DNA of 64,000 nucleotides from Candidatus Omnitrophota bacterium (lineage in GTDB: Bacteria; Omnitrophota; Gorgyraeia; Zapsychrales; JANLHA01), in assembly GCA_020632535.1 (NCBI GenBank), contig JACKFJ010000002.1:318331-382330 (forward strand), in the 5' to 3' direction. Each line of letters begins with the position of its first letter. Positions within the stretch are counted from its first letter, which is position 1. The position numbers and the translations under genes are program-made. The notes beneath the pieces were generated by a model. The model did not search any database. It worked only from the letters and a program-made list of their open reading frames with translations, and was not told where the DNA came from. Below are positions 2,627 to 49,223 of this stretch, piece by piece.

Positions 2627-3468
2627 GAAATGTCTTTAAGCATATTTTTACAACGATGGCCATTTATTATGTACTTATCGGCGGCATTATTGTGTTGAGT
2701 TTGAATGTCGATCGGATCACAATGGCTCGTCTTAACTATTTAAAAGAATCGGCGCAGTATCCGGTTCTTTTTCTAAATAACGAGGCCGTGTTTAGTCAAA
2801 TGCAATTTCGTTATGCGCGGCATTATTATCAAACATTAATTGATGCTGTCTCACTGTATTCGAAGGATGATACTATTTTTTCAACCACGACTTTAAGTCG
2901 TGCTTATAATATGCTTGCCATTTGTGAATATTATCTTGGAAACCATAAAAATGTTGCATCGTATTTTAAGAAAGCATTGATTTTGGAGCCGAGACATTAT
3001 TGGTTGAATTATAATCTTGGGGTTATTGCTTTTGAATCTGGTGATGATTCGGCGGCGTTGACGTATTTTAAAAATTCCTTTTCGTTGACTAAAAATCAAC
3101 TTGATGAGAGTATGCATTTGGATTATTTTGAATTTTGGGAGCCGTCTTTAGGAAAAAAATTCAAGGACACGAGTACGGTTCAGTTTTATGCGATGATTAA
3201 GAACAGTTATAAATTGTCGATTTTAGCGTATGATCGTATGGGTCAGCTTGCTACGGCCAAAAAGTTGACATTGATGGTTACGGAGGCGGGAATGGGGCAG
3301 CAAGATTCTTTTTATGATTATTACAAGGGAATTAGTTCGCAAAAAGTCAGTCCTCCGGATTCGGCTTTTAAGCTAATGTTTAACCCTTCACTTTACTTTG
3401 TTCCAGTTGGTCAGGAAAGATTATTTGTTAACCGGCAGGTTTCTGAAAGATTAAATAATGCGAAATAA
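2623..3468 (+). CDS. Membrane-anchored TPR-repeat protein
   Basis: ATGA overlap with the upstream gene. N-terminal TM helix (MAIYYVLIGGIIVLSL). TPR-like segments (AICEYYLGNHKNVASYFKKALILEP, LGVIAFESGDDSAALTYFKNSF). Confidence 0.5.
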   Translation: MRNVFKHIFTTMAIYYVLIGGIIVLSLNVDRITMARLNYLKESAQYPVLFLNNEAVFSQMQFRYARHYYQTLIDAVSLYSKDDTIFSTTTLSRAYNMLAICEYYLGNHKNVASYFKKALILEPRHYWLNYNLGVIAFESGDDSAALTYFKNSFSLTKNQLDESMHLDYFEFWEPSLGKKFKDTSTVQFYAMIKNSYKLSILAYDRMGQLATAKKLTLMVTEAGMGQQDSFYDYYKGISSQKVSPPDSAFKLMFNPSLYFVPVGQERLFVNRQVSERLNNAK

Positions 3469-5611
3469 AATTTTTATTTTGATTGGCACGATTTTAGCAA
3501 TTTCCGGATGCGCAGGCTTGTCGGATGCAAAGCCGTTTTATCAGGCGCATACACAGGTTGAGTTAATCTCTCCGACGAAGAGCATTAAGCCGGGCGAGCC
3601 GTTGTTGATCGGTTTGCGTTTGAAAATGGATCCTCAGTGGCACGTGTATTGGAAAAATCCCGGTGATTCCGGCTTATCACCGACAATTGCGTGGGATCTC
3701 CCTGAAGGATTTATTGCCGGAGAAATTATTTGGCCATATCCGCAAATGATTAATGTTGTTCCTTTGCGGACGTATGGTTATGAAAACGAGGTGTTTTTGT
3801 TTTCATCGATACAAACACCTGCCAAGATAGATGTTTCTAATATTGTTATTAAAGCTAGGGTTGATTGGTTGGCATGTAAACTTGAATGCGTTCCCGGTCG
3901 TGCCCAATTGCAATTGCACTTGCCGGTGAGCAAGCAAGCGCCGGTTGTGAATCCAATATGGCAAAAAGCTTTGGATGAGAGTCGTAAAAAATGGCCATTA
4001 AATTTAGAAAACATTCATGTGGCGGCGTACGAAAACAAGGGAGAAGTGATTTTTGAGTTTTCGCCACCGTCGGTGATTAAGCCGAATTCACAGATTTATT
4101 TCTTTCCTGAGAGTTCTGAGGTTATAGAACATGCCAGTGAACAGGTTCTTGCAAAGACAGAAGATAAGCACGTGCTTACTGTTAAGAAATCACACTTAGC
4201 GACGGAATCTTTAAATTTTATTTCTGGTATTGTCGTGAATCAATTAGGATGGGAAAATGTTGATTATGCTCAAGCATTAGTGGTTAATACACATGTGGAT
4301 GTTGTTGAATCTCCGGTTTCGGGAATGACAACGGATACACAAGGCAAGAGTACTGCGGGGAATGTATCTCTGACTTTGTTGGTAGCTTGTTTTTTCGCGT
4401 TTTTAGGCGGATTGATCCTTAATTTAATGCCGTGTGTTTTGCCGGTTTTATCACTCAAAGTTTTGCATCTTATTGAACAATCACATACGCGAAGAAATTT
4501 GTTTTTAAATGGCCTTGTTTTTGGCGCAGGTGTTTTGATTTCCTTTTGGATTCTTGCGTTGGGTTTGATTGCATTGCGTTCTTTGGGCGCGAACATTGGC
4601 TGGGGATTTCAGTTCCAATCGCCGGCGTTTGTCGCCTTGATCGCGATGGTGCTTTTTGTATTCGCGCTAAATTTATTTGGGTTATTTGAGGTAGGTGTTG
4701 GCTTGACAGCATTAGGAAATGCCGCATGGGGCAAGAAAGGATATTCCGCTAGTTTTGCCGCAGGTGTTTTGGCAACCATTGTGGCAACACCGTGTACCGC
4801 GCCATTTATGGGAACAGCTTTAAGTTTTGCCTTAAGCCGGAGTTCTTGGGAAGCGTTTCTTATTTTTACATTTTTAGGTATCGGCATGGCTTTTCCCGTC
4901 GTGTTCTTGTCCTATTTTCCGAAATTATTAAAGCGAATTCCAAAGCCCGGCGCGTGGATGCTAACACTCAAGAACTTGTTAGGCTTTTCTCTTTTGCTTT
5001 CCGTGATTTGGTTAATATGGGTATTTGGTTTGCAAAAAGGGATTAATGCGGTTGCTGAATTGTTAATCGCGTTTTTATCTTTGAGTGTCGGTTTATATTT
5101 TTATGGAAAATCGCAGGTCAAAACCAAACAATCTTTTTTGATAAAGTACAATTTCTTTATTTTTATTATTCTCGGGATCATTTTGATTATGGGCGCGATA
5201 AGTCGGCCATCGTCTGTTGTGAAAAGCATTGATGGTCAAAGCGAAAATAATACGGCTTTAGCGTGGCAGGAATATTCGCCACAATTGATGCAGGAATTAA
5301 AAAATCAGGATCGGCCGATTTTTTTAGATTTTACTGCAGCGTGGTGTTTGAGCTGTCAGGTCAATGATCGTTTGGCGCTAAGCGATGCGCAAGTCATCGC
5401 GGCTTTTAAAACGTATGATATTGTCCCTGTCAAAGCGGATTGGACAAATAATGATCCGATGATTACGGCCGCTTTGCATGAATATGGCCGCAATAGTATT
5501 CCTTTATATGTCCTTTACCCCGGCAGAGGTGTTGCCCCAGTTTTTTTGCCGGAAGTGATTACACCCGGTGTGGTTTTGAATTATTTTCGTAAACACTTAG
5601 AAAGAAATTGA
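3458..5611 (+). CDS. dsbD: DsbD-family protein-disulfide reductase: N-terminal periplasmic domain, CcdA-like membrane core and C-terminal thioredoxin domain
   Basis: 717 aa. Lipoprotein-like signal (ILAISGCAG). N-domain motifs HVYWKNPGDSGLSP and WLACKLECVPG. Membrane core with LNLMPCVLPVL and ATPCTAPFMG. C-terminal thioredoxin motif FTAAWCLSCQ. Confidence 0.85.
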   Translation: MRNKIFILIGTILAISGCAGLSDAKPFYQAHTQVELISPTKSIKPGEPLLIGLRLKMDPQWHVYWKNPGDSGLSPTIAWDLPEGFIAGEIIWPYPQMINVVPLRTYGYENEVFLFSSIQTPAKIDVSNIVIKARVDWLACKLECVPGRAQLQLHLPVSKQAPVVNPIWQKALDESRKKWPLNLENIHVAAYENKGEVIFEFSPPSVIKPNSQIYFFPESSEVIEHASEQVLAKTEDKHVLTVKKSHLATESLNFISGIVVNQLGWENVDYAQALVVNTHVDVVESPVSGMTTDTQGKSTAGNVSLTLLVACFFAFLGGLILNLMPCVLPVLSLKVLHLIEQSHTRRNLFLNGLVFGAGVLISFWILALGLIALRSLGANIGWGFQFQSPAFVALIAMVLFVFALNLFGLFEVGVGLTALGNAAWGKKGYSASFAAGVLATIVATPCTAPFMGTALSFALSRSSWEAFLIFTFLGIGMAFPVVFLSYFPKLLKRIPKPGAWMLTLKNLLGFSLLLSVIWLIWVFGLQKGINAVAELLIAFLSLSVGLYFYGKSQVKTKQSFLIKYNFFIFIILGIILIMGAISRPSSVVKSIDGQSENNTALAWQEYSPQLMQELKNQDRPIFLDFTAAWCLSCQVNDRLALSDAQVIAAFKTYDIVPVKADWTNNDPMITAALHEYGRNSIPLYVLYPGRGVAPVFLPEVITPGVVLNYFRKHLERN

Positions 5612-5657
5612 TTTTTAATAAGAATCAAGCATAATGCTCAAAAAGGAGATCATGATT

Positions 5658-6269
5658 ATGAAAAGTAAAATAGTTTTGTTTATTGCAATGCTTAGTGCTG
5701 CAATGGTTTTTGTTTCTGTCGCTCATGCTCAGGTCACGGTGGGTCAAGCTGCTCCGAATTTTACGTTAACAGATTCAAACGGTGAGACTGTAGCATTGTC
5801 TAAGTATGCTGGTAAATTTGTCGTCCTCGAATGGACAAATCACGATTGCCCATTTGTTAAGAAGCACTATGACAGCAGTAATATGCAGAATTTACAAAGT
5901 GAGTATACGTCGCAAGACGTCGTCTGGTTATCAATCAATTCATCCGCCGAGGGTAAGCAGGGTCATGTGGATGGTGAGCAGGCTAATGCTTTGATTGAAG
6001 AAAAAGGTGCGTCTCCGACAGCGTATCTTTTAGATCCGCAGGGCACCGTCGGAAAATTGTACGCGGCTCAGACAACACCACATATGTATATTATCGATCC
6101 TAAAGGGATTTTGATTTATCAGGGCGCTATTGATGATAAGGCAAGTGCAGATCCAGAAGATATCGCTACATCGAAGAATTATGTTCATGATGCTCTTGCC
6201 GCGGCGATGGCCGGACAAGCAGTCACGACGGCGACGACCAAGGCGTATGGCTGCTCAGTGAAGTATTAA
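5658..6269 (+). CDS. Secreted thioredoxin-fold (redoxin/TlpA-like) protein
   Basis: AAGGAG at 5643-5648 is best spaced for the ATG at 5658. Signal peptide MKSKIVLFIAMLSAAMVFVSVAHA. Motif VVLEWTNHDCPFVKKHY is typical of single-Cys redoxin-fold proteins. Sits directly downstream of dsbD. Confidence 0.7.
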   Translation: MKSKIVLFIAMLSAAMVFVSVAHAQVTVGQAAPNFTLTDSNGETVALSKYAGKFVVLEWTNHDCPFVKKHYDSSNMQNLQSEYTSQDVVWLSINSSAEGKQGHVDGEQANALIEEKGASPTAYLLDPQGTVGKLYAAQTTPHMYIIDPKGILIYQGAIDDKASADPEDIATSKNYVHDALAAAMAGQAVTTATTKAYGCSVKY

Positions 6270-26269: not shown

Positions 26270-26869
26270 GTGGACATGATTATTCCAGCCCATCAAAGTG
26301 AAAAAATAAAGAATGTTTTGCGGGTTTATGATCAACTCGACGTTGAAATTACTGAATTTCAAGCGTCTAGTTTTCTGAAATGTGAAAATGGATGCGGTCG
26401 ATGTTGCGATAATCCCAAGATTACGGCAACAATTTTAGAAGTTCTTCCTTTAGCTCAAGAATTGTGTAGAAATAGTACTGTTGAGCAAGCTTTGTCGAAG
26501 GTGACAAAAACCAAAGACAATGACGTTTGTGTTTTTTATCAACCAGATGTTTTTATTGCCGGTTATGGACGATGTTCCGTGTATCCATGGCGACCATTGC
26601 TTTGCCGACTTTTTGGATATTCGACTAAAAGAAATAAATCCGGCACGTCAGAAATTATGACATGTTCGACGATAAAGCGACGCAACGTTAAGGAATATGA
26701 GTTGGCAAAGGTCTTAGTGCAAGAAGAAAGAATTGTGGCACCATGCGCGCAAGATTATGCCATGCAGGTTTCACATATTGATTCGTACCTTGGTATTGAA
26801 CAATTCCCTATTAATCAGGCAGTTCGGAATGCTTTAGAAAAAATGAGTTTGTATGAAAAAACGGTATAA
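26270..26869 (+). CDS. YkgJ-family (CxxCxxCC-type) cysteine-cluster protein
   Basis: CENGCGRCCDNP motif near the N-terminus, plus a later CSVYPWRPLLCRLFG segment typical of the family. The start is GTG at 26270 or ATG at 26276. Confidence 0.65.
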   Translation: MDMIIPAHQSEKIKNVLRVYDQLDVEITEFQASSFLKCENGCGRCCDNPKITATILEVLPLAQELCRNSTVEQALSKVTKTKDNDVCVFYQPDVFIAGYGRCSVYPWRPLLCRLFGYSTKRNKSGTSEIMTCSTIKRRNVKEYELAKVLVQEERIVAPCAQDYAMQVSHIDSYLGIEQFPINQAVRNALEKMSLYEKTV

Positions 26870-32948: not shown

Positions 32949-34127
32949 ATGCCTGCCAGTTTATTTAATAAAGAATCGATTTATATTCTTGATGCTGTTC
33001 GTACGGCTGTCGCTAGTCCTTTCAAAAGTTTAAAAGATTTTTCTGCGGGACAGTTGGGTGGGTATGTCATTGTCAATCTTTTGAAACGTCAGAATTTTAA
33101 TCCTGCTTTGGTTGATGAAGTGATCTTCGGCAATACGGTTATGGCGGGCAATGGACAAAATTCTGCTCGTCAGGCCAGTATTCGTGGTGGACTTTTACCG
33201 TCGACGACGGCTTATACCGTCAATAATGTTTGTGGTGCTGGCTTGCAGTCGGTGATCTTGGCGGGTCAGGCGATTTATTCTGGTACAAGTCAATGTGTGA
33301 TTGCCGGTGGCAGCGAAAGCGCAAGTCGTACGCCGCAGCTTTTTTCTAAATTGGTTGAAACACCTTTTGATCAGCGCGATCCGGTTGATAGTTTGCTTTA
33401 TGATGGATTGTGGTGCGCCTTAAGCGGCAAGCATATGGGTGAATTATGTGAAAAGCTTGCCGGGAAAGCAAAGATCACTCGGAAAATGCAAGACAGATAC
33501 TCCTTGGAAAGTCACCGCAAAGCTGCGATCGGAAAATTTAATAAGGAAATAATTCGTGTACCCTTCGCGGATGGTAAATTTTTTTGCGTCGATGAGCGTA
33601 TTCGTCGACGAGTTGGCATTGAGAACTTTGAAACTTTACCGCCAGCTTTTGTGGAAAACGGCACAATAACTTCCGGAAATTCTTCAGTTCCTTCTGATGG
33701 GAGTGCGGGTGTTTGTGTTGTGGGGGAAAATTTTGTCCGTACGCAAAAAGTTAAACCTTTGGCGCGTATTTTGGGTTATGCTTCAATTGCTGTTGAACCA
33801 CAGCTGACTTTTTCTGCTGGTGTTCCAGCCATTGAAGTGTGTTTAAAGACATGTAATTTAAAACTCAAAGATATTGATCTTTTTGAAGTGAGCGAAGCTT
33901 TTAGCGCGCAAGCGATATTCACAAGAGATACATTAAATATCCCATCAGATAAAATTAATATTTATGGCGGTGATATAGCGTTAGGACACCCATTGGGCGC
34001 GGCCGGCGCGCGTATTTTGGTTACCCTTGTTCACGCCTTACAAACCGAAGGGAAAAAATTGGGAATGGCAGCGATTTGTTACGGCGGCGGTGGAGCTATG
34101 GCTATGATCATTGAGAATTTGCAATGA
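32949..34127 (+). CDS. Acetyl-CoA C-acetyltransferase (thiolase II)
   Basis: Active-site Cys in VNNVCGAGLQS. NIYGGDIALGHPLGAAGARIL. C-terminal AAICYGGGGAMAMIIE. Confidence 0.9.
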   Translation: MPASLFNKESIYILDAVRTAVASPFKSLKDFSAGQLGGYVIVNLLKRQNFNPALVDEVIFGNTVMAGNGQNSARQASIRGGLLPSTTAYTVNNVCGAGLQSVILAGQAIYSGTSQCVIAGGSESASRTPQLFSKLVETPFDQRDPVDSLLYDGLWCALSGKHMGELCEKLAGKAKITRKMQDRYSLESHRKAAIGKFNKEIIRVPFADGKFFCVDERIRRRVGIENFETLPPAFVENGTITSGNSSVPSDGSAGVCVVGENFVRTQKVKPLARILGYASIAVEPQLTFSAGVPAIEVCLKTCNLKLKDIDLFEVSEAFSAQAIFTRDTLNIPSDKINIYGGDIALGHPLGAAGARILVTLVHALQTEGKKLGMAAICYGGGGAMAMIIENLQ

Positions 34128-34834
34128 TAAATAATACAAATTTTTTTATTAACAATCCGATTTTTGTAAAATTTAAGAAGCGTTTTGATTTTTTGACACT
34201 TCGGTCAGTTCCGGTGTTGAAATCGGTGCATATTAATGAACGTATTGTTGAAATACCCTTTGCAATTTCGTCTGTGTCACAGTTGCCAAAAGGCGCAAAG
34301 GTTTTAGATTTGGGTTGCACGGAAAGTCCTTTGCCTTTGCAGTTGGCTACTTTGGGTTTTCAAGTTACGGGATTCGATTTTAGGACATATCCGTACGCTC
34401 ACCCAAATCTGACTTTTGTTCAGGGCGATATGACAAAACTTCCTTTTGATGATGAAAGTTTTGACGTGGTCTTGAGTATTTCGACGTTAGAGCATATCGG
34501 TATTGGTTTTTATAAGGATCCGAAAGAAATTGATGATGCGGATAAAAAGGCTTTAGGCGAAGCGGTGCGGGTTTTAAAACATAATGGGCTTTTTATTTTA
34601 ACCGCGCCTTATGGTATTGCCAATCGAACGGATCAACAGCGTATTTATGATGCAAAGAGTCTTGATGAGTTGCTTTCGCCGTTTAATATTGAGACAATTC
34701 GCTATTTTAAGTCCGCTCAATTGGATCAATCTGTGGGAAATACGTGGATCGAAATTACTAAAACGGATGCTGCCGCTATTGCCAGCCCAAATGCCACGAC
34801 ATGCGTGTGTTTGGTTCGTGCCAAAAAACAATGA
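34124..34834 (+). CDS. Class I SAM-dependent methyltransferase
   Basis: ATGA overlap with the thiolase gene. Motif I VLDLGCTESP. Post-I FDFR. DVVLSISTLEHIG. Confidence 0.7.
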   Translation: MINNTNFFINNPIFVKFKKRFDFLTLRSVPVLKSVHINERIVEIPFAISSVSQLPKGAKVLDLGCTESPLPLQLATLGFQVTGFDFRTYPYAHPNLTFVQGDMTKLPFDDESFDVVLSISTLEHIGIGFYKDPKEIDDADKKALGEAVRVLKHNGLFILTAPYGIANRTDQQRIYDAKSLDELLSPFNIETIRYFKSAQLDQSVGNTWIEITKTDAAAIASPNATTCVCLVRAKKQ

Positions 34835-34868
34835 GTAAATCGAAGGCTTTCTGATAAAATACCCCATT

Positions 34869-36122
34869 ATGACTGCGACAAAAATAGTAAAAAAATCTAG
34901 GCTTCCTATAAGTTCTAAACTGAATATTTCTCGTGAAGAAGAGTTGAAAATTCTTCGTCGCATTGTTGATATTACGTGTTCAGATTTGGGTTTGAGAGGA
35001 ATTCTCGATGAAGTTGTCGGCATTGTCAATGAAATGACCAAGGCGGATTCAATTTTTATTTATTTGTTTGAAAGCGGCAAGAAGAGTTTGGCGCTTATGG
35101 CGTCCAAGACCGGTTCCAAAAAGATTTTGGGAAAAATCAATTTGCGCGTCGGCGAAGGGATTACTGGCTGGGTCGCGGAGCACAATAAGCCTGTCGCGAT
35201 TACAAAAAATGCGTATCAAGATCCTCGCTTTAAAGGTTTTGATGTCCTTCCAGAAGATCGCTATGAAGCTTTTCTTTCGGTTCCGATTATATATAAGGGA
35301 AGAGTTAGCGGCGTTATCAATGTCCAGCATAAGCGACCGCATGAATATTCTGTGGGTTCGGTCAATCTTCTTAATACCATTGCTAAGCAGGTTGGCGGTG
35401 TTATTGAGCATGCTCGGTTATTTGAAGATACCAAACAGAAAGCCAGTCAATTTGACAGTCTCGTTAAGGTAAGTCATTCTATTACGTCAGAGCGCTATCT
35501 TGATGAAATTTTAAGTTTGATTGTAGTTGTGACCGCAGAAATGCTGAATTCTAAAATTTGCTCGATTATGCTTTTGGATGAAAAGAGCGAAGAACTTAGA
35601 ATTAAGGCGACACAGAGTTTGAGCGAAGAATATAAAAAGAAGCCGAGCGTGAAAGTTCATAGTAGTTTGGTTGGTGATGTTGTTAAAACTAAAAAACCTT
35701 TGATTGTCACCGATGTTCGCGAAGAAACACGCTATGTTTATCGCGATTTGGCGATTAAAGAAAATCTTTCGTCAATGGTCGCGGTGCCGATGGTTGTTAA
35801 AGATAAAGCGATAGGTGTCATTAATGTGTATACGAAAGAGATGCATCAATTCTCTGATGAGGAAGTTAATGTTTTGCAAATGGTCGCAAATCAAGCTGCC
35901 GTTGCCGTCGAGAATACCAAGCTTGTTGAGGAAGCGTCTAAGACTCGCGAGGCTCTCGAGACGCGCAAACTTGTTGAGCGCGCTAAAGGCATTTTGATGC
36001 GTATGAATAGTCTTGATGAAGAAGCGGCGCATCGTCTTATTCATAAAAAGAGTATGGACACTTGTAAATCGATGAAAGAAATCGCGGAATCGATTATTTT
36101 GATGGATGAATTCCGAAAATAA
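34869..36122 (+). CDS. GAF-GAF-ANTAR RNA-binding antiterminator-type regulator
   Basis: Two GAF-like modules (GEGITGWVAEHNKPVAI...SFLSVPIIYKGRVSGVINV, and a second ...MVAVPMVVKDKAIGVINVY). C-terminal ANTAR-like helices ALETRKLVERAKGILMRMNSLDEEAAHRLIHKKSMDTCKSMKEIAESII. Confidence 0.8.
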   Translation: MTATKIVKKSRLPISSKLNISREEELKILRRIVDITCSDLGLRGILDEVVGIVNEMTKADSIFIYLFESGKKSLALMASKTGSKKILGKINLRVGEGITGWVAEHNKPVAITKNAYQDPRFKGFDVLPEDRYEAFLSVPIIYKGRVSGVINVQHKRPHEYSVGSVNLLNTIAKQVGGVIEHARLFEDTKQKASQFDSLVKVSHSITSERYLDEILSLIVVVTAEMLNSKICSIMLLDEKSEELRIKATQSLSEEYKKKPSVKVHSSLVGDVVKTKKPLIVTDVREETRYVYRDLAIKENLSSMVAVPMVVKDKAIGVINVYTKEMHQFSDEEVNVLQMVANQAAVAVENTKLVEEASKTREALETRKLVERAKGILMRMNSLDEEAAHRLIHKKSMDTCKSMKEIAESIILMDEFRK

Positions 36123-36150
36123 ATATATTCAATACATCTTTAAAAAAAGA

Positions 36151-36179
36151 TTGACAAAATAATATTGTAAGCATATACT
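36151..36179 (+). promoter_or_regulatory. Sigma70-like promoter of the amtB-glnB unit
   Basis: TTGACA (36151-36156), 17 nt spacer, TATACT (36174-36179). Predicts a leader of about 210 nt. Confidence 0.55.
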
Positions 36180-36189
36180 TTCAAAGTCT

Positions 36190-36243
36190 CTAAAGGCGAC
36201 GAAGTCTTTAGGTGGAGTATAAGAAGTACGGGCAAAGATGTCC
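36190..36243 (+). promoter_or_regulatory. Two hexaloop hairpins in the amtB leader (candidate ANTAR target)
   Basis: P1 is CTAAAGGC (36190-36197), loop GACGAA, GTCTTTAG (36204-36211): 8 bp with one G.U. P2 is GGGC (36230-36233), loop AAAGAT, GTCC (36240-36243). The P2 3' arm overlaps the 5' arm of the downstream terminator. Confidence 0.4.
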
Positions 36244-36289
36244 TCTAGTAAGCCATTGATTGGTAATGGTTGCTGGGGGATTTTTTTTT
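36241..36289 (+). terminator. Strong intrinsic terminator inside the amtB 5' leader (attenuator)
   Basis: TCCTCTAGTAAGCCATT (36241-36257) pairs with AATGGTTGCTGGGGGA (36265-36280). About 16 bp with one bulge and some G.U pairs, loop GATTGGT, followed by nine T (36281-36289). Lies 105 nt before the amtB ATG. Confidence 0.7.
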
Positions 36290-36394
36290 GACACAGGCGA
36301 TGAGGCCTATCGTAAGTCAGCCTAAAGCTTCAAAGGCGTCATGGATTTAGGGATAAGAACAAGTTAATCGTTTCAAAGCAAAGGAGAATGTACC

Positions 36395-37642
36395 ATGGAT
36401 CCAAATCCAATTAATACAGGAGATACAGCTTGGGTGTTGGCGAGCGCTGCGCTTGTGCTTTTGATGACACCCGGACTTGCTTTTTTTTATGGTGGGATGG
36501 TTCGCCGTAAAAATGTTTTAGGTATTTTAATGCAATGTTTTATGTTAATGAGTATTATCACGATTCAATGGATCTTGTTTGGGTATAGTTTATCTTTCGG
36601 TGATGGTGGTGGATTAAATAAATTCATCGGTGGATTGGGATGGTTTGGATTAAACGGCGTTGGTCAAGATCCAAGCACGAGTTATGGAACAACGATTCCC
36701 CATGTTCTTTTTATGGCGTTTCAAGGTATGTTTGCCGTGATTACTCCGGCTTTGATCATCGGATCAATCGCGGAACGTATGAAATTTGCGGGTTTTGTTG
36801 TTTTTATGCTGTTATGGTCAACGTTAGTCTATGATCCGATTTGCCACATGGTTTGGGCCGTCGGTGGATTTTTAAGTACGATGGGAGCATTGGATTTTGC
36901 CGGTGGTACGGTTGTTCATATCAATGCGGGTGTGGCTGGTCTTGTGATTGCCATGATGTTAGGCAGAAGATTGGGTTATGAAAACAGAGGAATGTCAATT
37001 CATAATATGCCGTTTGTCGTATTAGGTGCAGGGTTGCTTTGGTTCGGGTGGTTTGGCTTTAATTCTGGAAGTGCTTTGGGTGCTAATGGTTTGGCCGCTC
37101 ATGCATTTGTTACGACCAATATTGCCGCCGCTGCAGCAGGTTTGAGCTGGGCTTTGATTGAATGGAAGATCAGTGGAAAGCCGACGATGTTTGGGGTGGT
37201 GACGGGTATTGTTGCAGGTTTGGTTGCGATTACACCTGCCGCAGGTTTTGTGGATGCGATGGGTGCTCTTGCAATCGGTTTATCCGTTAGTGTTATTTGC
37301 TTCTTAGCTGTCGGGTATTTAAAACCAAAGTTTGGTTATGATGATTCACTCGATGCTTTTGGTGTGCACGGCATCGGTGGTCTTTGGGGTGCTTTAATGA
37401 CGGGTATTTTTGCCAATCCGGCTGTTAATTCTGCGGGGACAGGTTTGCTTTACGGCAATCCCAAGCAGTTATATATTCAAGCGGTAGCTTGTTTGATTAC
37501 GATCGCTTACACCGCGATTGCTACGGCTCTTATTTTCTGGGTTGTGAATATGATTGTCGGCATGAGAGTCAACCAAGAAGATGAAGTTATTGGACTTGAT
37601 TTGAGCCAACATCACGAACGGGCTTACACTATTATTGAATAA
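36395..37642 (+). CDS. amtB: Ammonium transporter AmtB
   Basis: LAFFYGGMVR, DFAGGTVVHINAGVAGL and DAFGVHGIGGLWG. 415 aa polytopic protein. Confidence 0.95.
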   Translation: MDPNPINTGDTAWVLASAALVLLMTPGLAFFYGGMVRRKNVLGILMQCFMLMSIITIQWILFGYSLSFGDGGGLNKFIGGLGWFGLNGVGQDPSTSYGTTIPHVLFMAFQGMFAVITPALIIGSIAERMKFAGFVVFMLLWSTLVYDPICHMVWAVGGFLSTMGALDFAGGTVVHINAGVAGLVIAMMLGRRLGYENRGMSIHNMPFVVLGAGLLWFGWFGFNSGSALGANGLAAHAFVTTNIAAAAAGLSWALIEWKISGKPTMFGVVTGIVAGLVAITPAAGFVDAMGALAIGLSVSVICFLAVGYLKPKFGYDDSLDAFGVHGIGGLWGALMTGIFANPAVNSAGTGLLYGNPKQLYIQAVACLITIAYTAIATALIFWVVNMIVGMRVNQEDEVIGLDLSQHHERAYTIIE

Positions 37643-37690
37643 ATTTAACCAGAACTCTTTTTGAAAGAGAATCCAAGGAGGATGTCTCAC

Positions 37691-38032
37691 ATGAAACTGA
37701 TAACAGCAATTATCCAGCCGCATCGGTTGGACGATGTTAAAAAAGAACTCTATAAAGAAGATATTAACCTTATAACAGTAAGCGAGGTTTTGGGGCATGG
37801 TCGTCAAAAGGGCGTCGATGAGTTTTACCGAGGCGTCAAAGAAACGGGTAATCTTCTTCGCAAATACAAGGTAGAAATTGCCGTTAATGAAAACTTCGTT
37901 GATAAAGCAATTAAAGCCATTATTCGCGGGGCGCGTACCGGTAAAATTGGCGACGGTAAAATTTTCGTCGTGGAATTGCCGCGGTGTATTCGTATTCGTA
38001 CGGGTGATGAAGGCCCCGAAGCCATTGGTTAA
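37691..38032 (+). CDS. glnB: PII nitrogen regulatory protein (GlnB/GlnK)
   Basis: The ATG at 37691 follows AAGGAGGA. MKLITAIIQPHRLDDVKKEL...GHGRQKG...TGKIGDGKIFV...IRIRTGDEG. 113 aa. Confidence 0.9.
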   Translation: MKLITAIIQPHRLDDVKKELYKEDINLITVSEVLGHGRQKGVDEFYRGVKETGNLLRKYKVEIAVNENFVDKAIKAIIRGARTGKIGDGKIFVVELPRCIRIRTGDEGPEAIG

Positions 38033-38051
38033 TATCCTTTGAGCGAATAAG

Positions 38052-38102
38052 ATGAGGTGAGCGGGTGAACTTGTTTAAAAAGTTTGCCCGCTTACCTCAT
38101 TT
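38052..38102 (+). terminator. Long hairpin after glnB (terminator or stabiliser; short U-tract)
   Basis: ATGAGGTGAGCGGG (38052-38065) pairs with CCCGCTTACCTCAT (38087-38100), with one G.U pair. Inner AACTT/AAGTT pairing is also possible. Only TT follows. Confidence 0.45.
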
Positions 38103-38163
38103 AGACCGAAGATCGCCGCGCGATGCTTAAAGGAATGTTGGGATTTTGCTCGAAGTGTTTAGA

Positions 38164-38192
38164 TTGACAGTAGGAAAGCACATTGGTAGAAT
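38164..38192 (+). promoter_or_regulatory. Sigma70-like promoter upstream of the type III GS gene
   Basis: TTGACA (38164-38169), 17 nt spacer, TAGAAT (38187-38192). Confidence 0.55.
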
Positions 38193-38266
38193 ACAGCCTT
38201 ATTGATTTTCTCCTGTAATAGTAAATTTTCTCAAAAAGATCAGTTCATACAAAGGAGAGTTGCAAA

Positions 38267-40414
38267 ATGAGTAATGTTAATCGTACAAAAGAAGTACAAA
38301 CCACCTCGATACGTAATTTTATAGGAGAGACAGGTATGAGCGACGTTGAAGAAAATGGTAACGCGAAATCGATTCCTGAATATTTTGGGAAAAATGTATT
38401 TAATTTTAAAGTGATGCGCCAATATCTTTCGGATAAGGCACTTAAAAGTTTAAGCGCTACGATCAAGGAAGGTGGCCGTTTAGATCCAGAAATTGCCGAT
38501 GAAGTCGCAGAAGCGATGAAGACATGGGCGGTTTCTAAAGGAGCCACGCATTTTACGCATTGGTTCCAGCCCTTGACTGGTACAACCGCAGAAAAGCACG
38601 ATTCTTTTATTACTTGGAATGACGAAGGTAATATCATTTTAAGTTTTGGTGGTAAAGAATTGATTCAGGGTGAGCCAGATGCGTCATCATTTCCGTCGGG
38701 TGGATTGCGTGCAACGTTTGAAGCGCGTGGCTATACGGGGTGGGATCCGACATCACCAGCGTTTATTAAAGAAGGTCCAGAAGCTACGACGCTTTGCATT
38801 CCCACATTTTATATTGGGTATCATGGTGAAGCGTTAGACAAGAAAACACCATTACTTCGTTCAATGAATGTTTTGTCAAAACAGGTTTGCCGTTTGGCGA
38901 GTCTTTTTGGCATTGATGTGAAAGGCAAGCGTGCCTATTGCACATTGGGACCAGAACAAGAATATTTTTTGATTGATAAAGCTGATTTTGAATCTCGCAT
39001 TGATTTGGTTCAAACAGGACGTACTCTTTTTGGTCGAAAGCCAGCAAAGCATCAACAGCAGGAAGATCATTATTTTGGCGCCATTAAGCCGCGCGTTATG
39101 GCTTTCATGGAAGATCTCGATCGCAAACTGTGGGAATTAGGAATGCCTTCGAAAACTCGTCATAATGAAGTTGCTCCCGCGCAATATGAAATTGCTCCGA
39201 TTTATGAAGATTTAAATATTGCGGTTGATCACAATATGATGTGTATGGAAGTTATGCGTCAAACTGCAGATCGATTAGGTTTGGTTTGTTTGCTACATGA
39301 AAAGCCGTTTGCCGGTATCAATGGTTCTGGTAAACATAATAATTGGTCAATTGTTGGACCGGATGGGAAGAATTGGTTATATCCGGGAAAAACTCCGCAC
39401 GAAAATGCCAAATTTTTGACAACACTTTGCGCGATTATTAAGGCTGTTGACACATACGCGGATCTTTTGCGTGTTACCGTAGCTACAGCTGGCAATGATC
39501 ATCGTTTAGGAGCTAATGAAGCGCCTCCGGCAATTGTTTCTATTTTCTTGGGCGAGCAGTTGTATGATATTGTTGAGCAAATCGAAAAAGGTGGCGCTAA
39601 AACTTCGAAAGAAGGCGGCACGATTAGTGTTGGTGTCGATTCATTGCCGAGCTTGGCTCGTGATACGACGGATCGTAATCGAACATCGCCGTTTGCTTTT
39701 ACCGGTGCTAAATTTGAGTTTCGTGCCTTAGGTTCGAATCAAAATCCATCAGCGGCAAATATGGTTTTAAATACTATTGTCGCGCAGGCATTGAAGGAAA
39801 TCTGCGATCAATTAGAAGCTGATAAGAAAGCCGGCAAAGATTTTAATAAATCTTTACAGGCGATCTTACAGGCCATTATTAAAAAGCATAAGCGTGTTTT
39901 GTTTAGCGGCGACGGTTATAGTCAAGAATGGCACGCGGAAGCTAAGAAGCGTGGTTTGCCGAATATGAAATCGACTCCAGAAGCTCTAGAGACTTTAAAG
40001 CTTCAAAAGAACATTGATGTTTTATCTAAAAACGGTGTTCTTTCGGAAATTGAAATTGTTTCTCGATATGAAATTAATAAACACGCGTACAATACAGTCA
40101 TCGCTCTTGAAGGTGAATGCGCCTTAACCATGGCTCGCACGCAATTGATTCCGGCTGGTTTGGATTTTCAGGAACAACTTTCTTCTGTCAAGTCTGTCAC
40201 GCAGAAGAAATTGTTAAAGCAGGTGTCATCGCTTATTGATTCTGCGCTCAAAGCCGCGGATGCATTGGATGCGGCCATTGAGAAGCATGATTCGGCTAAG
40301 ACCTTAGCTGGCATGAATAAATTGCGTGAGGTCATTGATGAATTAGAAGGCGTGGTTCCGGCAAATATGTGGCCGATACCGAGCTATGCACAAATGTTGT
40401 TAATGAATGCTTAA
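38267..40414 (+). CDS. glnN: Glutamine synthetase, type III
   Basis: 715 aa, which is type III length. N-terminal PEYFGKNVFNFKVMRQYL...GATHFTHWFQPLTGTTAEKHDSF. Catalytic region NEVAPAQYEIAPIYE and HEKPFAGINGSGKHNNWS. Confidence 0.9.
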   Translation: MSNVNRTKEVQTTSIRNFIGETGMSDVEENGNAKSIPEYFGKNVFNFKVMRQYLSDKALKSLSATIKEGGRLDPEIADEVAEAMKTWAVSKGATHFTHWFQPLTGTTAEKHDSFITWNDEGNIILSFGGKELIQGEPDASSFPSGGLRATFEARGYTGWDPTSPAFIKEGPEATTLCIPTFYIGYHGEALDKKTPLLRSMNVLSKQVCRLASLFGIDVKGKRAYCTLGPEQEYFLIDKADFESRIDLVQTGRTLFGRKPAKHQQQEDHYFGAIKPRVMAFMEDLDRKLWELGMPSKTRHNEVAPAQYEIAPIYEDLNIAVDHNMMCMEVMRQTADRLGLVCLLHEKPFAGINGSGKHNNWSIVGPDGKNWLYPGKTPHENAKFLTTLCAIIKAVDTYADLLRVTVATAGNDHRLGANEAPPAIVSIFLGEQLYDIVEQIEKGGAKTSKEGGTISVGVDSLPSLARDTTDRNRTSPFAFTGAKFEFRALGSNQNPSAANMVLNTIVAQALKEICDQLEADKKAGKDFNKSLQAILQAIIKKHKRVLFSGDGYSQEWHAEAKKRGLPNMKSTPEALETLKLQKNIDVLSKNGVLSEIEIVSRYEINKHAYNTVIALEGECALTMARTQLIPAGLDFQEQLSSVKSVTQKKLLKQVSSLIDSALKAADALDAAIEKHDSAKTLAGMNKLREVIDELEGVVPANMWPIPSYAQMLLMNA

Positions 40415-40452
40415 GTATTTCGTAGGGCGTAAGCAGACATAAATAAAACTGG

Positions 40453-40490
40453 TAAGCGGAGGGGGGCGGTCAAACGCTTTTCTCCGCTTA
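40453..40490 (+). terminator. Hairpin after glnN (weak terminator candidate)
   Basis: TAAGCGGAG (40453-40461) pairs with CTCCGCTTA (40482-40490). The loop is 20 nt and the T-tract is poor. Confidence 0.3.
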
Positions 40491-40516
40491 ACTTTGGTTT
40501 ACCATCGTGAAAAATT

Positions 40517-41221
40517 ATGATCCTTTATCTTAAACACGTCGATATCGAAGGCCCGGAAACGATTGCCCCCTTTTTTGAAAAGCATGGGTACGCAACAAAA
40601 GTCCTTGAATTATATAATGGTGATATTTTGCCACAAAAATTCGATGATATTGACGCTGTCGTTTGTTTGGGCGGGCCAATGAATGTGTATGAAGAAGACA
40701 AGTATCCTTTTTTGAAAGACGAGAATATTTTTATACAACGTGTGCTTGAAAATAAGATTCCTTTTTTGGGTATTTGCTTAGGCTCGCAGTTATTAGCAAA
40801 AGCGGCTGGCGGGAAAGTTACTCGTTCTCCAGTGGAGGAAATTGGTTGGCGCACGGTACAGTTAACGGATGAGGGGGGTAAGGACGCTTTATTAAAGAAT
40901 TTGCCAGCTGAGCTTGTTGTGTATCAATGGCATGGCGACACTTTTTCGATTCCACCAAACGGAATTTGTTTGGTCAATGGCTTGGACTGTCCTCGTCAGG
41001 CATTGAAGGTTGGCTCAGTAGCTTATGGTTTTCAGTTCCATATTGAAATTACGGACAAAAGCATTCACGAATGGTCAGACGAATATTTTAAAGATTCTCC
41101 TTCGCTATTAAGAGAAAAAAAAGATATGATGCTAAAAGAATACACTAAGTATAAAATGCTTTTTAAAAAAGAAGCAGAAACCATTTATAGCAATTTTCTT
41201 AATTTATTGCAGTCACAATAA
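40517..41221 (+). CDS. Class I glutamine amidotransferase-like protein
   Basis: Nucleophile elbow FLGICLGSQLL. GFQFHIE His-Glu region. 234 aa stand-alone GATase1. Confidence 0.75.
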   Translation: MILYLKHVDIEGPETIAPFFEKHGYATKVLELYNGDILPQKFDDIDAVVCLGGPMNVYEEDKYPFLKDENIFIQRVLENKIPFLGICLGSQLLAKAAGGKVTRSPVEEIGWRTVQLTDEGGKDALLKNLPAELVVYQWHGDTFSIPPNGICLVNGLDCPRQALKVGSVAYGFQFHIEITDKSIHEWSDEYFKDSPSLLREKKDMMLKEYTKYKMLFKKEAETIYSNFLNLLQSQ

Positions 41222-41245
41222 CTTTTTAGTCCGACCTAATATCAT

Positions 41246-42931
41246 ATGCTACGCATAGCCATCGCCCAGATTAATGTTACCGTCGGAGACCTTCCCGGAA
41301 ACCAGAAGAAAATCCTCGAATATTTACAAAAAGCTAAGATGCTTAAGTCCGATATGGTGGTTTTTCCTGAACTTGCTTTGACAGGTTATCCGCCGGAAGA
41401 TCTCTTACATAAAGAGCATTTTGTCCGAGATAATTTAAAAGTTTTAAAAAAGATCGCTTTTCAAGTCAAAGATATCATTATGGTCGTCGGTTTTGTCGAT
41501 ATTGATCGTAACAAAAACTTATACAATGCCGCGGCGGTTATCGCGAAAGGAAAAGTTAGGGGCGTTTATCATAAGCATGATTTGCCTAATTATGGGGTTT
41601 TTGATGAGAAAAGATATTTTGCTGAAGGTAATCAGCATCCTCTTTTCTTATTTAATGATATTTGTTTTGGTGTCAATATTTGCGAGGATATTTGGCAAGA
41701 CGAAGGGATTTATTTGAGTCAGGCACAAAGGGGCGCGTCTTTACTTATTAATATTTCGTCATCGCCGTACGATTATGAAAAACTTGAGCGCCGTGAACGT
41801 TTGCTCAGCAATCGTGCTAAGGAATCCAAAGCTTATATTTGCTATGCTAACTTAGTTGGTGGGCAAGATGAACTTGTTTTTGATGGAGGAAGTTTTGTCG
41901 TGAGTCCGCGCGGAAGAATATTAGCGCGCGCAGAACAATTTAATGAAGATATGCTAGTGGTGGATTTACCAATTGATGATGAACGTAAGAAGCGGCGGGA
42001 TAGTAAACAATTTATTCAGCTTCCTACTGATGGCGAATTGATTGGTCGTATCGTGGCGCATAAAAATATTATGCCGCGCATGACACAGGATGAGCGTATT
42101 TTTAAGGCTTTGATTTTAGGGACGCGTGACTATGTTTGGAAAAATGGTTTTAAAAAAGTTGTCATTGGGCTAAGCGGTGGAATTGATTCTTCTTTAGTCG
42201 CGGTCATCGCGCGAGAAGCTGTTGGTTGTGAGAATGTTATTGGGATTACGATGCCTTCGCCATTCTCATCGCCGGAGACGCGTCGTGACGCGCAGGCTTT
42301 AGCGGAGAATTTAGGAATTGAATTTAAAGAAATCGCGATTAAAGAAATTTATGAAGTCTATTTAAAATCTTTATCTTCAGGATTTGCGGGGTTGCCGAGT
42401 AATGTCGCGGAGGAAAATCTTCAGGCGCGGGTTCGTGGCAATATTTTGATGGCATTTTCGAATAAATTCGGCTGGTTACTTTTAACGACGGGAAATAAAA
42501 GTGAAATTGCGGTTGGTTATTGCACATTGTATGGGGATATGTCAGGCGGTTTTGCTGTTATCAAAGATTTGCCAAAAGGAAAAGTTTATGAAATTAGCCG
42601 TTTGGCGAATAATATTATTGGTCCAGTGATTCCCGAAAGTGTCTTTGACCGCCCTCCAAGCGCAGAATTGCGGCCTAATCAAAAGGATCAGGATTCTTTG
42701 CCTCCTTATGAGGTTTTGGATAAAATTTTAAAAATGTACGTTGAAGATCATCGTTCATGTGCTGCGATTGTGAAGAAATTTGGTAATCTACAGATCGTCA
42801 AAGATGTGATAGCCATGGTTGACCGCAGTGAATACAAGCGTCGCCAAGCTCCCCCCGGTATTAAGATTACTCCGCGTGCTTTTGGCAAAGATTGGCGTCT
42901 GCCAATGACAAATAAATACCGAGAAGCTTAA
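41246..42931 (+). CDS. nadE: Glutamine-dependent NAD+ synthetase
   Basis: N-terminal CN-hydrolase domain (FPELALTGYPPEDL, NICEDIW). C-terminal PP-loop VVIGLSGGIDSS and TTGNKSEIAVGYCTLYGDM. Confidence 0.9.
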   Translation: MLRIAIAQINVTVGDLPGNQKKILEYLQKAKMLKSDMVVFPELALTGYPPEDLLHKEHFVRDNLKVLKKIAFQVKDIIMVVGFVDIDRNKNLYNAAAVIAKGKVRGVYHKHDLPNYGVFDEKRYFAEGNQHPLFLFNDICFGVNICEDIWQDEGIYLSQAQRGASLLINISSSPYDYEKLERRERLLSNRAKESKAYICYANLVGGQDELVFDGGSFVVSPRGRILARAEQFNEDMLVVDLPIDDERKKRRDSKQFIQLPTDGELIGRIVAHKNIMPRMTQDERIFKALILGTRDYVWKNGFKKVVIGLSGGIDSSLVAVIAREAVGCENVIGITMPSPFSSPETRRDAQALAENLGIEFKEIAIKEIYEVYLKSLSSGFAGLPSNVAEENLQARVRGNILMAFSNKFGWLLLTTGNKSEIAVGYCTLYGDMSGGFAVIKDLPKGKVYEISRLANNIIGPVIPESVFDRPPSAELRPNQKDQDSLPPYEVLDKILKMYVEDHRSCAAIVKKFGNLQIVKDVIAMVDRSEYKRRQAPPGIKITPRAFGKDWRLPMTNKYREA

Positions 42932-43037: not shown

Positions 43038-43066
43038 TTGCAAGTTGATAGGAAAACCAGTAAAAT
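43038..43066 (+). promoter_or_regulatory. Candidate promoter upstream of gltB
   Basis: TTGCAA (43038-43043), 17 nt spacer, TAAAAT (43061-43066). Confidence 0.4.
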
Positions 43067-43148
43067 ACGCACTTGCAAATTTGGAAGCAATAATTTTATC
43101 TGAACCCAAAGTTTTTAATTTAAATATAGTTATGGAGATTTTAATTCT

Positions 43149-47783: not shown

Positions 47784-49223
47784 ATGGGTGATATCAAAGG
47801 TTTCATGAAATTTAAGCGCGAGGATTTTACGAACGAGCCTGCGCAAGAACGCATTAAGCATTTTAAGGAATTTCACCTTCATATGCCTGAGGACAAGCTG
47901 CGTGAGCAGGGTGCTCGTTGTATGGATTGCGGAGTTCCGTTTTGTCAGTCTGGTTGTCCAATTAATAATATTATTCCGGATTGGAATGATCTTGTTTATA
48001 AGGATCGTTGGGACTTAGCTAGTGAGCGTTTGCAAAAGACTAATAATTTTCCAGAATTTACTGGCCGTGTTTGTCCTGCGCCATGCGAAAATGCTTGTGT
48101 TCTGGCTATCAATTCTTCATCAGTGACGATCAAAAATATCGAAGTTTCGATCGTTGAAAAAGCTTACGAAGAAAATTGGCTAAAACCACAACCACCAGTT
48201 CATCGTTTGGGCCAGAAAGTTGCGGTAATTGGTGGTGGCCCGGCGGGATTAGCTGCCGCTGACCAATTAAATAAGATCGGATATCATGTCACGGTTTATG
48301 AAAAGAATGAAGTTGTTGGCGGACTTTTAGCCTTAGGCATTCCAGATTTTAAATTGGAAAAATGGGTCATTGAGCGTCGCGTAAAGCGTATGCGCGATGA
48401 AGGAGTAAAGATTAAGACAAAGGTTCATGTTGGGAAAGACATTTCAGCCAAAGAGTTGGTCGCGCAATATGACGCAGTTGTTTTGTCGGGTGGAGCAGAA
48501 TGGCCACGTGATCTTCCTGTGCCGGGTCGTGAGTTAAAAGGTGTCCATTTTGCTATGGATTTCTTGACACAGCAGAATCGTGAAAATCAAGGGCAGAAAA
48601 TTCCTGCGGCTGATCGTATTCTCGCGACGGGTAAAAAGGTTGTTGTTCTTGGTGGCGGTGACACCGGCTCCGATTGCATTGGTACATCCAATCGTCAAGG
48701 TGCAACCATTGTGCGGAATTTTGAGCTTTTGACCAAGCCACCTAAGGAAAGGAGCAAAGACAATCCGTGGCCGAACTGGGCATTTATTGAACGGACTTCG
48801 TCGTCCCATGAAGAAGGTGTTGAACGTGATTATGGGATTTTAACTAAGAAATTTTCTGGTGAAAATGGTGTTGTGAAAAAGTTGCATGCGGTGCGTGTGG
48901 AATTTGGGCCCAAGGATCCTGTGACAGGGCGTAGCGCAATGAAGGAAATTCCGGGATCAGAGTTTGAAATAGAAGCTGATCTGGTGCTTTTAGCTTTAGG
49001 GTTTTTGGGGCCGATTAAGAACGGAATGATTGAAGAATTGGGTGTGGCATTAGATGAACGCGGGAATGTTCAAACGAATGGTAATCGTATGACGAGTGTT
49101 GCTGGCGTTTTTGCTGCTGGTGATATGCGTCGTGGTCAATCGCTTGTCGTTTGGGCTATTAATGAAGGTCGGATGGCTGCCGAAGGTGTCCATAGGTATT
49201 TGGTTTCGATGGCTAAGGTATAG
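47784..49223 (+). CDS. gltD: Glutamate synthase small subunit (NAD(P)H-dependent)
   Basis: Fe-S motifs CMDCGVPFC and CPAPCENAC. Dinucleotide folds VAVIGGGPAGLAAA and VVVLGGGDTGSDC. Confidence 0.9.
   Translation: MGDIKGFMKFKREDFTNEPAQERIKHFKEFHLHMPEDKLREQGARCMDCGVPFCQSGCPINNIIPDWNDLVYKDRWDLASERLQKTNNFPEFTGRVCPAPCENACVLAINSSSVTIKNIEVSIVEKAYEENWLKPQPPVHRLGQKVAVIGGGPAGLAAADQLNKIGYHVTVYEKNEVVGGLLALGIPDFKLEKWVIERRVKRMRDEGVKIKTKVHVGKDISAKELVAQYDAVVLSGGAEWPRDLPVPGRELKGVHFAMDFLTQQNRENQGQKIPAADRILATGKKVVVLGGGDTGSDCIGTSNRQGATIVRNFELLTKPPKERSKDNPWPNWAFIERTSSSHEEGVERDYGILTKKFSGENGVVKKLHAVRVEFGPKDPVTGRSAMKEIPGSEFEIEADLVLLALGFLGPIKNGMIEELGVALDERGNVQTNGNRMTSVAGVFAAGDMRRGQSLVVWAINEGRMAAEGVHRYLVSMAKV

Follow-up and report, generated by a model that had tools for sequence, protein, structure and literature searches.

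Our results suggest that the leader of the ammonium-transporter gene amtB in Candidatus Omnitrophota bacterium, an uncultivated organism, is an antitermination switch of the ANTAR type, and that it is probably controlled by the GAF-GAF-ANTAR protein whose gene lies directly before it. We put the probability of this reading at about 0.75. The sequence examined was a 64-kb window of a contig of at least 451 kb. A first-pass annotation, made from the sequence alone, had proposed such a switch, and the proposal is supported by the anatomy of the leader, its membership in a lineage-specific RNA family, covariation, synteny and the predicted nitrogen regulon of relatives. The anatomy, the mutual exclusivity of the second hairpin (P2) and the terminator, conservation, covariation, synteny and regulon content were computed; from these we infer protein-RNA binding, the identity of the binding protein, its ligand, the direction of the response and read-through. 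The elements concerned are as follows.

34869-36122, + strand: gene for the GAF-GAF-ANTAR one-component regulator (417 aa; Pfam)
34938-35438: GAF1 of the regulator (about aa 24-190)
35499-35912: GAF2 of the regulator (about aa 211-348)
35940-36098: ANTAR domain of the regulator (aa 358-410)
36151-36179, + strand: sigma-70-type promoter TTGACA-N17-TATACT (11 of 12 consensus bases)
36190-36211, + strand: hairpin P1, CTAAAGGC-GACGAA-GTCTTTAG, from folding; 9-bp stem at 36189-36212
36213-36229, + strand: 17-nt linker joining P1 to P2, poorly conserved
36230-36243, + strand: hairpin P2, GGGC-AAAGAT-GTCC, putative antiterminator arm (loop with A1, G4 and A5; closing pair C-G)
36240-36281 (stem) and 36281-36289 (T9), + strand: intrinsic terminator, about 18 bp with one bulge
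36295-36308, + strand: third hexaloop hairpin, AGGC-GATGAG-GCCT (motif match), 6 nt past the T-run and with no terminator behind it
36381-36386, + strand: ribosome-binding site AAGGAG, 8 nt upstream of the amtB ATG (read from the sequence)
36395-37642, + strand: amtB (Pfam Ammonium_transp, 4.4e-129; NCBIfam amt, 2.5e-142)
37661-38032, + strand: glnB, encoding P-II (Pfam P-II, 4.3e-25)
36395-38032, + strand: amtB plus glnB, the putative regulated operon (Pfam, NCBIfam)
38267-40414: glnN, type III glutamine synthetase, downstream of glnB

The spacer between the regulator stop (36122) and the amtB start measures 272 nt, and the promoter, both hairpins and the terminator were found in it where the first-pass annotation had placed them. 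The promoter is the joint best match within 33000-42000, and the transcript probably starts near 36185-36187. P1, described earlier as an 8-bp hairpin, extends to 9 bp and is present in every fold, with its hexaloop GACGAA (36198-36203) closed by a C-G pair. P2 by itself contributes just -5.5 kcal/mol, and RNAfold unaided closes it one pair deeper, into a tetraloop. The terminator has a stability of -21.3 kcal/mol (z -5.3; none of 200 shuffles was equally stable), and its T-run ends at 36289, 105 nt upstream of the amtB ATG; a simple consensus terminator scan did not list it, which we attribute to the bulge in the stem. Four nucleotides, GUCC at 36240-36243, form the 3' arm of P2 and also the start of the 5' arm of the terminator, making the two folds mutually exclusive, so that a closed P2 would prevent the terminator. 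In its minimum-energy fold the full leader retains P1 and has the terminator in place of P2, which suggests that the default state is termination. The core pattern of both hairpins, RGRCNNNGANGYCY, has four matches in 128 kb (both strands) against 0.56 expected, and three of these fall within 115 nt on the + strand of this leader.

We propose that amtB-glnB is transcribed from a strong, probably constitutive promoter of the sigma-70 type and that regulation sets in once transcription has begun. The leader, as it emerges, would by default fold into P1 and the long terminator followed by U9, and RNA polymerase would halt about 105 nt before amtB. An active GAF-GAF-ANTAR dimer would bind both hexaloops (GACGAA in P1 and AAAGAU in P2, both closed by C-G and both with G4 and A5), and this binding would keep the weak P2 closed, block the terminator and permit read-through into amtB-glnB. 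If the GAF domains sense 2-oxoglutarate and/or glutamine, as their likeness to nitrogen-status sensors suggests, read-through would be expected under nitrogen limitation. Further downstream lie genes for a class I amidotransferase and a glutamine-dependent NAD synthetase, then gltB and gltD. Because amtB, P-II, glnN, NAD synthetase, gltB and gltD all follow it, the switch would stand at the head of a nitrogen-assimilation island.

Relatives were collected by a scan of species-representative genomes, which gave 59 loci, 46 of them with orthologues or close relatives of the regulator (52-88% identity), nearly all from Omnitrophota. Eight further loci were added through exact-protein look-ups, and synteny was counted over 54 loci (L-numbers below label relatives' loci). 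Among the seven close leaders there is no variation in the promoter hexamers, the P1 stem, positions 4-6 of the P1 loop (GAA) or any part of P2, while the promoter spacer, the linker and positions 1-3 of the P1 loop vary; the block around the ribosome-binding site, CAAAGCAAAGGAGAA, is also conserved among close relatives. The terminator helix of the seven close relatives has four pairs with compensatory change and is 94% paired, a score reached by 1 of 500 shuffles.

A covariance model, R2, was built from 13 leaders of more distant Omnitrophota, none of them from the window's clade. It finds the window leader at 36192-36243 with 35.6 bits (E 4.7e-7), and the next match in the window scores 13.2 bits. 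Over 56 sources R2 gave 42 matches, all on the regulator's strand. In the model-fitted alignment of these 42 members, compensatory changes are present in 6 of 6 P1 pairs, with 97.4% of cells paired and a score reached by none of 500 shuffles. The covariation that the first-pass annotation had suggested testing in orthologous leaders was thus found in the terminator of the close clade and, in the R2-fitted alignment of distant leaders, in P1, whereas within the close clade neither the P1 stem nor the P2 stem varies. Throughout the family the closing pair is almost always C-G (38 of 39 in P1, 40 of 40 in P2). The loop consensus is R-W-U-G-A-N for the first loop (position 1 being A in 18 and G in 14 of 33) and A-W-W-G-A-N for the second (A in 34 of 38), and G4 is present in every six-nucleotide loop (33 of 33 first and 38 of 38 second loops), though R2 itself selects for G4. 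By this model the leader is a clear member of a lineage-specific Omnitrophota family, and its predicted anatomy is that of the broad ANTAR-target class. The linker between P1 and P2 is 7-24 nt long in the family, with one outlier of 35 nt. Two relatives have, between P1 and P2, an insertion with its own closing helix (L004 at 5735-5770, CAGGTC/GATCTG; L181 at 3565-3635, CAGATCC/GGATCTG), which would hold both hexaloop hairpins adjacent despite the long linker.

The association of regulator and element extends well beyond the close clade. Relatives' loci typically have amtB-PII-glnN, or glnN directly, behind the regulator. The distant leaders are unlike one another in sequence but share an architecture of a TTGACA promoter, a longer hexaloop hairpin and one to three terminator units, each unit consisting of GGRC-NNNGAN-GTCC overlapping a terminator with its T-run; in some leaders two or three such units stand in tandem. 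A P2-plus-terminator unit occurs no more than 800 nt downstream of the regulator stop in 32 of the 54 loci. The orthologue loci hold 73 units on the regulator's strand versus 10 on the other (about 0.15 per kb), and unrelated metagenome DNA holds 0.0045 units per kb per strand. A scan of metagenomes with the DNA pattern GGGCANAGATGTCCTCT returned 120 matches, nearly all by chance in coding DNA, with only L089 looking real; the pattern is too short for that collection.

All of the genes behind the units belong to nitrogen assimilation: amtB-glnB, glnN, glnA (L014), nirB (L007, L017, L039, L185), glutamate-synthase-like genes (L044, L036) and nadE (L037). The pairing is also present, with relatives of the regulator, in metagenome-assembled genomes (MAGs) of Clostridia (L037) and Desantisbacteria (L044). 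The first-pass annotation had described the glnN and gltB leaders of the window as lacking comparable structures. For this genome we agree, as the element was not found in either leader by direct reading, pattern scans or R2, but the glnN leaders of many relatives carry it, and the predicted regulon is therefore wider than amtB. Since the regulator-element pair also stands before glnN, glnA, nirB, glutamate-synthase-like genes and nadE, the GAF-GAF-ANTAR protein looks like the general nitrogen-assimilation regulator of the phylum. In L041, the regulator gene itself has a hairpin-plus-terminator unit close upstream of it (at 3819), a hint that the regulator may be autoregulated there.

The sensor domains point to the possible signal. 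The open reading frame (ORF) at 34869-36122 does encode two GAF domains followed by ANTAR, as annotated earlier: Pfam GAF_2 matches with 3.8e-43 over two stretches, and ANTAR (PF03861) with 8.9e-20 (70.7 bits versus a gathering score of 27.3; profile positions 2-54 of 54). The ANTAR domain aligns with the ANTAR parts of Rv1626 (1s8n), NasR (4akk) and 6wsh in the PDB. The 120 best NCBI protein matches of the regulator have identities of 70-100%, with a 100% match to a protein of a Candidatus Omnitrophica MAG. GAF1 aligns end to end with the GAF domains of PtsP (EI-Ntr; NCBIfam PRK11061, 2.4e-41, profile positions 3-165; PDB 3ci6, 2.6e-23) and full length with the PtsP GAF structure 3trc; these are its top matches by a wide margin, with NifA as the next family model. 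GAF2 has its top NCBIfam match in the NifA model TIGR01817, in the N-terminal GAF region (5.4e-30, profile positions 2-199), and among solved structures GAF2 has weaker matches to PtsP GAFs. The PtsP and NifA matches are at the level of domains and far under the full-length family cut-offs. Glutamine acts via EI-Ntr's GAF domain (PMC4848567), and A. vinelandii NifA has a GAF domain to which 2-oxoglutarate binds (PMC8219145). As GAF1 is PtsP-like and GAF2 has its best match in NifA, our best guess is that the GAF domains sense 2-oxoglutarate and/or glutamine. Given that all targets are assimilation genes, RNA binding would most simply be activated by high 2-oxoglutarate and/or low glutamine. 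Shorter relatives of the regulator, in L041-L045, have a single, GAF2-like GAF domain fused to ANTAR. In three loci (L018 at 1626-3923, L020 from about 5270 and L021 from about 5309) a second, longer GAF-containing protein is encoded right after the regulator and before glnN.

Several observations weigh against the switch as proposed. The published consensus for ANTAR targets is SYAC-AAHGRH-GUDB for P1 and RRGY-AAHGDV-GCYY for P2 (Ramesh et al. 2012, PMC3369931). In the same study A1, G4 and the closing pairs were functionally important, A1-to-U mutations impaired control by EutV, the linkers of the Enterococcus faecalis eut elements were 5-12 nt and a linker of 3 nt, or one of 14 nt in eutP, impaired EutV control. 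The loop consensus of our family agrees with AAHGRH and AAHGDV, and the window P2 fits 12 of the 14 consensus positions. However, the first loop of the window begins with G where the consensus has A, and its 17-nt linker exceeds the E. faecalis range. The departure of the first loop from A-x-x-G had been pointed out in the first-pass annotation and is real, but G1 is normal in this lineage (14 of 33) and is present in published targets too, for example GAUGAA and GAUGAU; some published targets likewise have linkers of 18-22 nt (published hits 019 and 045). Rfam searches gave no ANTAR-target match in the window, where no family reaches its gathering score, and a second covariance model, R1, was therefore built from 28 published ANTAR targets, mostly eut elements of Firmicutes. 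R1 gives the leader 10.8 bits, which ranks third in the window (E 0.81); over the 272-nt spacer alone the E value is 0.0035, and the match is significant only under this restriction. Both R1 and R2 recovered P1 and P2. In 216 kb of relatives' loci, R1 had ten matches with E <1, all on the regulator's strand, and at least seven of the ten have the same coordinates as independently found leader sites. As close relatives show no variation in the stems of P1 and P2, the covariation of these stems comes only from distant leaders, and it rests on a motif-anchored or model-fitted alignment. In addition, the regulator has no following element in 22 of the 54 loci, and the 64 kb seen of a contig of at least 451 kb leave room for another ANTAR protein. 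Finally, similarity of the GAF domains does not by itself fix the ligand.

This last point bears on the alternative that survives best, in which switch and regulator are as proposed and the signal is P-II (GlnB) binding a GAF domain, a cyclic nucleotide or redox. We consider these signals taken together unlikely, but control via P-II is a serious alternative to direct metabolite sensing. GlnB is encoded by a gene co-transcribed with amtB under the putative switch, an arrangement that would close a feedback loop, and in some bacteria GlnB controls the GAF domains of NifA. Many different ligands are known for GAF domains, and the PDB matches of the two domains here include GAFs of cGMP phosphodiesterase and adenylate cyclase. 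However, the families that GAF1 matches best, PtsP by a wide margin and then NifA, have GAF domains that are documented sensors of glutamine or 2-oxoglutarate, which favors direct sensing.

It is also conceivable, though improbable, that the leader is a real ANTAR target bound by a different ANTAR regulator encoded elsewhere, such as a response regulator like GnfR or NasT, and that the adjacent protein serves other targets. The unseen part of the contig and the 22 loci with no element beside the regulator would suit this possibility, and ANTAR domains are thought not to be specialized for their RNA (PMC7496416). However, in 32 of 54 species-level loci the element lies directly downstream of the regulator, irrespective of the target (amtB, glnN, nirB or nadE), and the association persists in the Clostridia and Desantisbacteria MAGs, which argues for the adjacent protein as the controller.

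The hairpin and T9 could instead be the terminator of the upstream operon, with an ordinary promoter for amtB and with P1 and P2 incidental, which we regard as very improbable. There is no terminator between the regulator stop and the promoter, so that read-through from upstream would be stopped by this structure as well. However, it lies downstream of the promoter and so must act on amtB transcripts. Moreover, conservation of P1, P2 and loop positions 4-6 contrasts with divergence of the linker and the spacer, R2 recognizes the leader with 35.6 bits and relatives' leaders contain two or three tandem units. Least credible of all is a protein-independent riboswitch or other known cis-regulatory RNA (glutamine riboswitch, T-box or PyrR site), for although two families that are themselves terminator/antiterminator leaders have sub-threshold Rfam matches (bglG-cis-reg, 23 bits versus a gathering score of 80; PyrR, 16.7 versus 54), every Rfam family stays under its gathering score in the window and conservation is confined to two tiny hexaloop hairpins, without a conserved core as large as a ligand pocket.

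The proposed GAF-GAF-ANTAR switch shares features with several known ANTAR systems. As in the eut leaders controlled by EutV in E. faecalis, there are two small hexaloop hairpins with G4, A or R at position 1 and a C-G closing pair, P2 has its 3' arm in common with an intrinsic terminator and there are several attenuators per regulon. However, EutV is a phosphorylated response regulator for ethanolamine use, whereas the protein here is a one-component regulator with two GAF domains placed before ammonium uptake; the stems also differ, being GGC/GUC and GGGC/GUCC (second pair G-U) here and CAC/GUG and AGC/GCU in eut. NasR of Klebsiella oxytoca (NIT-ANTAR) is closer in design, as a one-component sensor-ANTAR protein encoded beside the nitrogen operon that it antiterminates, and the P2 of nasF (GGAU-AAAGGC-GUCC) is strikingly similar to that of the window (GGGC-AAAGAU-GUCC). 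NasR responds to nitrate and nitrite through its NIT domain and serves nitrate assimilation only, whereas the protein here has tandem GAF domains and the targets in relatives cover general nitrogen assimilation. In the GnfK/GnfR system of Geobacter sulfurreducens (REC-ANTAR; PMC2995071), there are terminator-like signals before nitrogen genes, with premature-terminator signals in the glnK-amtB operon, and an ANTAR protein is the proposed controller. GnfR is a two-component response regulator superimposed on RpoN/GnfM-activated promoters in a diazotroph, unlike the single-protein sensor and sigma-70-type promoter here. The PtsP and NifA GAFs report nitrogen and carbon status, and their likeness to the GAFs of the regulator is at the domain level; the output of PtsP is a phosphotransferase and that of NifA a sigma-54 activator, whereas here an RNA-binding ANTAR domain takes that place.

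There are precedents for ANTAR elements before amtB/P-II. Most predicted ANTAR targets precede nitrogen genes (Ramesh et al. 2012, PMC3369931), and Table S2 of that study lists elements before amtB/P-II in Desulfotomaculum acetoxidans and Clostridium thermocellum. These are the same element type before the same genes, but they are in other phyla and are predictions only; they were not linked to a GAF-ANTAR protein, and the term GAF is absent from the supplementary files. The first-pass annotation knew of no characterized GAF-ANTAR regulator controlling amtB. This statement holds for the protein class, which papers of 2012 and 2020 call uncharacterized, but not for the element before amtB, which has these precedents. 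A 2025 review mentions the GAF-ANTAR architecture and describes no characterized example, and our literature searches found no later characterization of a GAF-ANTAR protein. What is new is the sensor architecture of the regulator and the phylum-wide regulon, with the element as a lineage-specific member of a known RNA class.

GAF-sensor ANTAR proteins are among the commonest ANTAR architectures, and none has a known signal or target. Tying the GAF-GAF-ANTAR protein to a defined RNA element and a coherent set of nitrogen genes in dozens of species would be the first functional assignment for this class, and its sensor domains point to testable ligands. For Omnitrophota, a phylum that is widespread and uncultivated, it would also be the first concrete view of how nitrogen is regulated, and, with one protein and one 100-nt leader, it would supply a simple, portable candidate switch. 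More tentatively, and at somewhat less than even odds, a single GAF-GAF-ANTAR protein may be the master nitrogen regulator of Omnitrophota and some neighbors, reading 2-oxoglutarate and/or glutamine directly and acting purely by antitermination from constitutive promoters. Its reach would cover ammonium uptake, both types of glutamine synthetase, nitrite reduction, glutamate synthase and NAD synthetase. Such a protein, if it exists, would be an RNA-level counterpart of NtrC, GlnR or NtcA.

Elsewhere in the window, neither regular-expression searches, a hairpin-plus-terminator scan nor R2 found further sites. The top R1 match, at 26491-26528 (17.2 bits; loops GAAGGU and AAUGAC), lies in an ORF (26270-26869) with a CxxCxxCC-type motif; it has a short T-run and no convincing terminator hairpin behind it, and we treated it as chance. 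A palindromic match, GGACTTCGTCGTCC at 48793-48806, is inside a gltD-like ORF (47784-49223), has no terminator and was also judged to be chance. Downstream of glnB there is a 12-bp hairpin lacking a T-run (38054-38100), and behind it another promoter close to consensus (TTGACA-17-TAGAAT with an extended TG, 38164-38192) serves glnN, whose 5' untranslated region is short and unstructured. With a promoter of its own and such a leader, glnN would escape the ANTAR switch in this genome. The gltB leader contains an inverted repeat, TTGCAAGT...ACTTGCAA, at about 43040-43078, which may be an operator for a DNA-binding regulator.

The third hexaloop hairpin, beyond the T-run of the amtB leader, was not in the first-pass annotation. 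Within the close clade it is present only in the window and in L180. As a translational switch it was rejected, since the region 36290-36400 has no significant fold (z +1.2). Similar terminal hairpins, with a loop of xxUGAG, follow the last terminator in L009 (5442), L012 (5394), L015 (6930) and L030 (2287). Small hydrophobic ORFs of 34-46 aa lie between the attenuators and amtB in L012 (about 5435-5552), L014 (about 5495-5600), L030 (about 2340-2480) and L033 (about 5545-5680), those of L012 and L014 having a GLFYA motif in common; the window has no such ORF in this position. At 2287-2350 of L030 there is complementarity between the terminal hairpin, in its loop and 3' arm (GCAUUGAGGU), and the region around the start codon of a small ORF (ACCUCAAUGU), and nothing comparable was found in L012, L015 or L009. 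The alternative pairing in L030 has a z score of -3.1, with 1 of 200 shuffles as stable, and this terminal hairpin may be an ANTAR-controlled translational switch.

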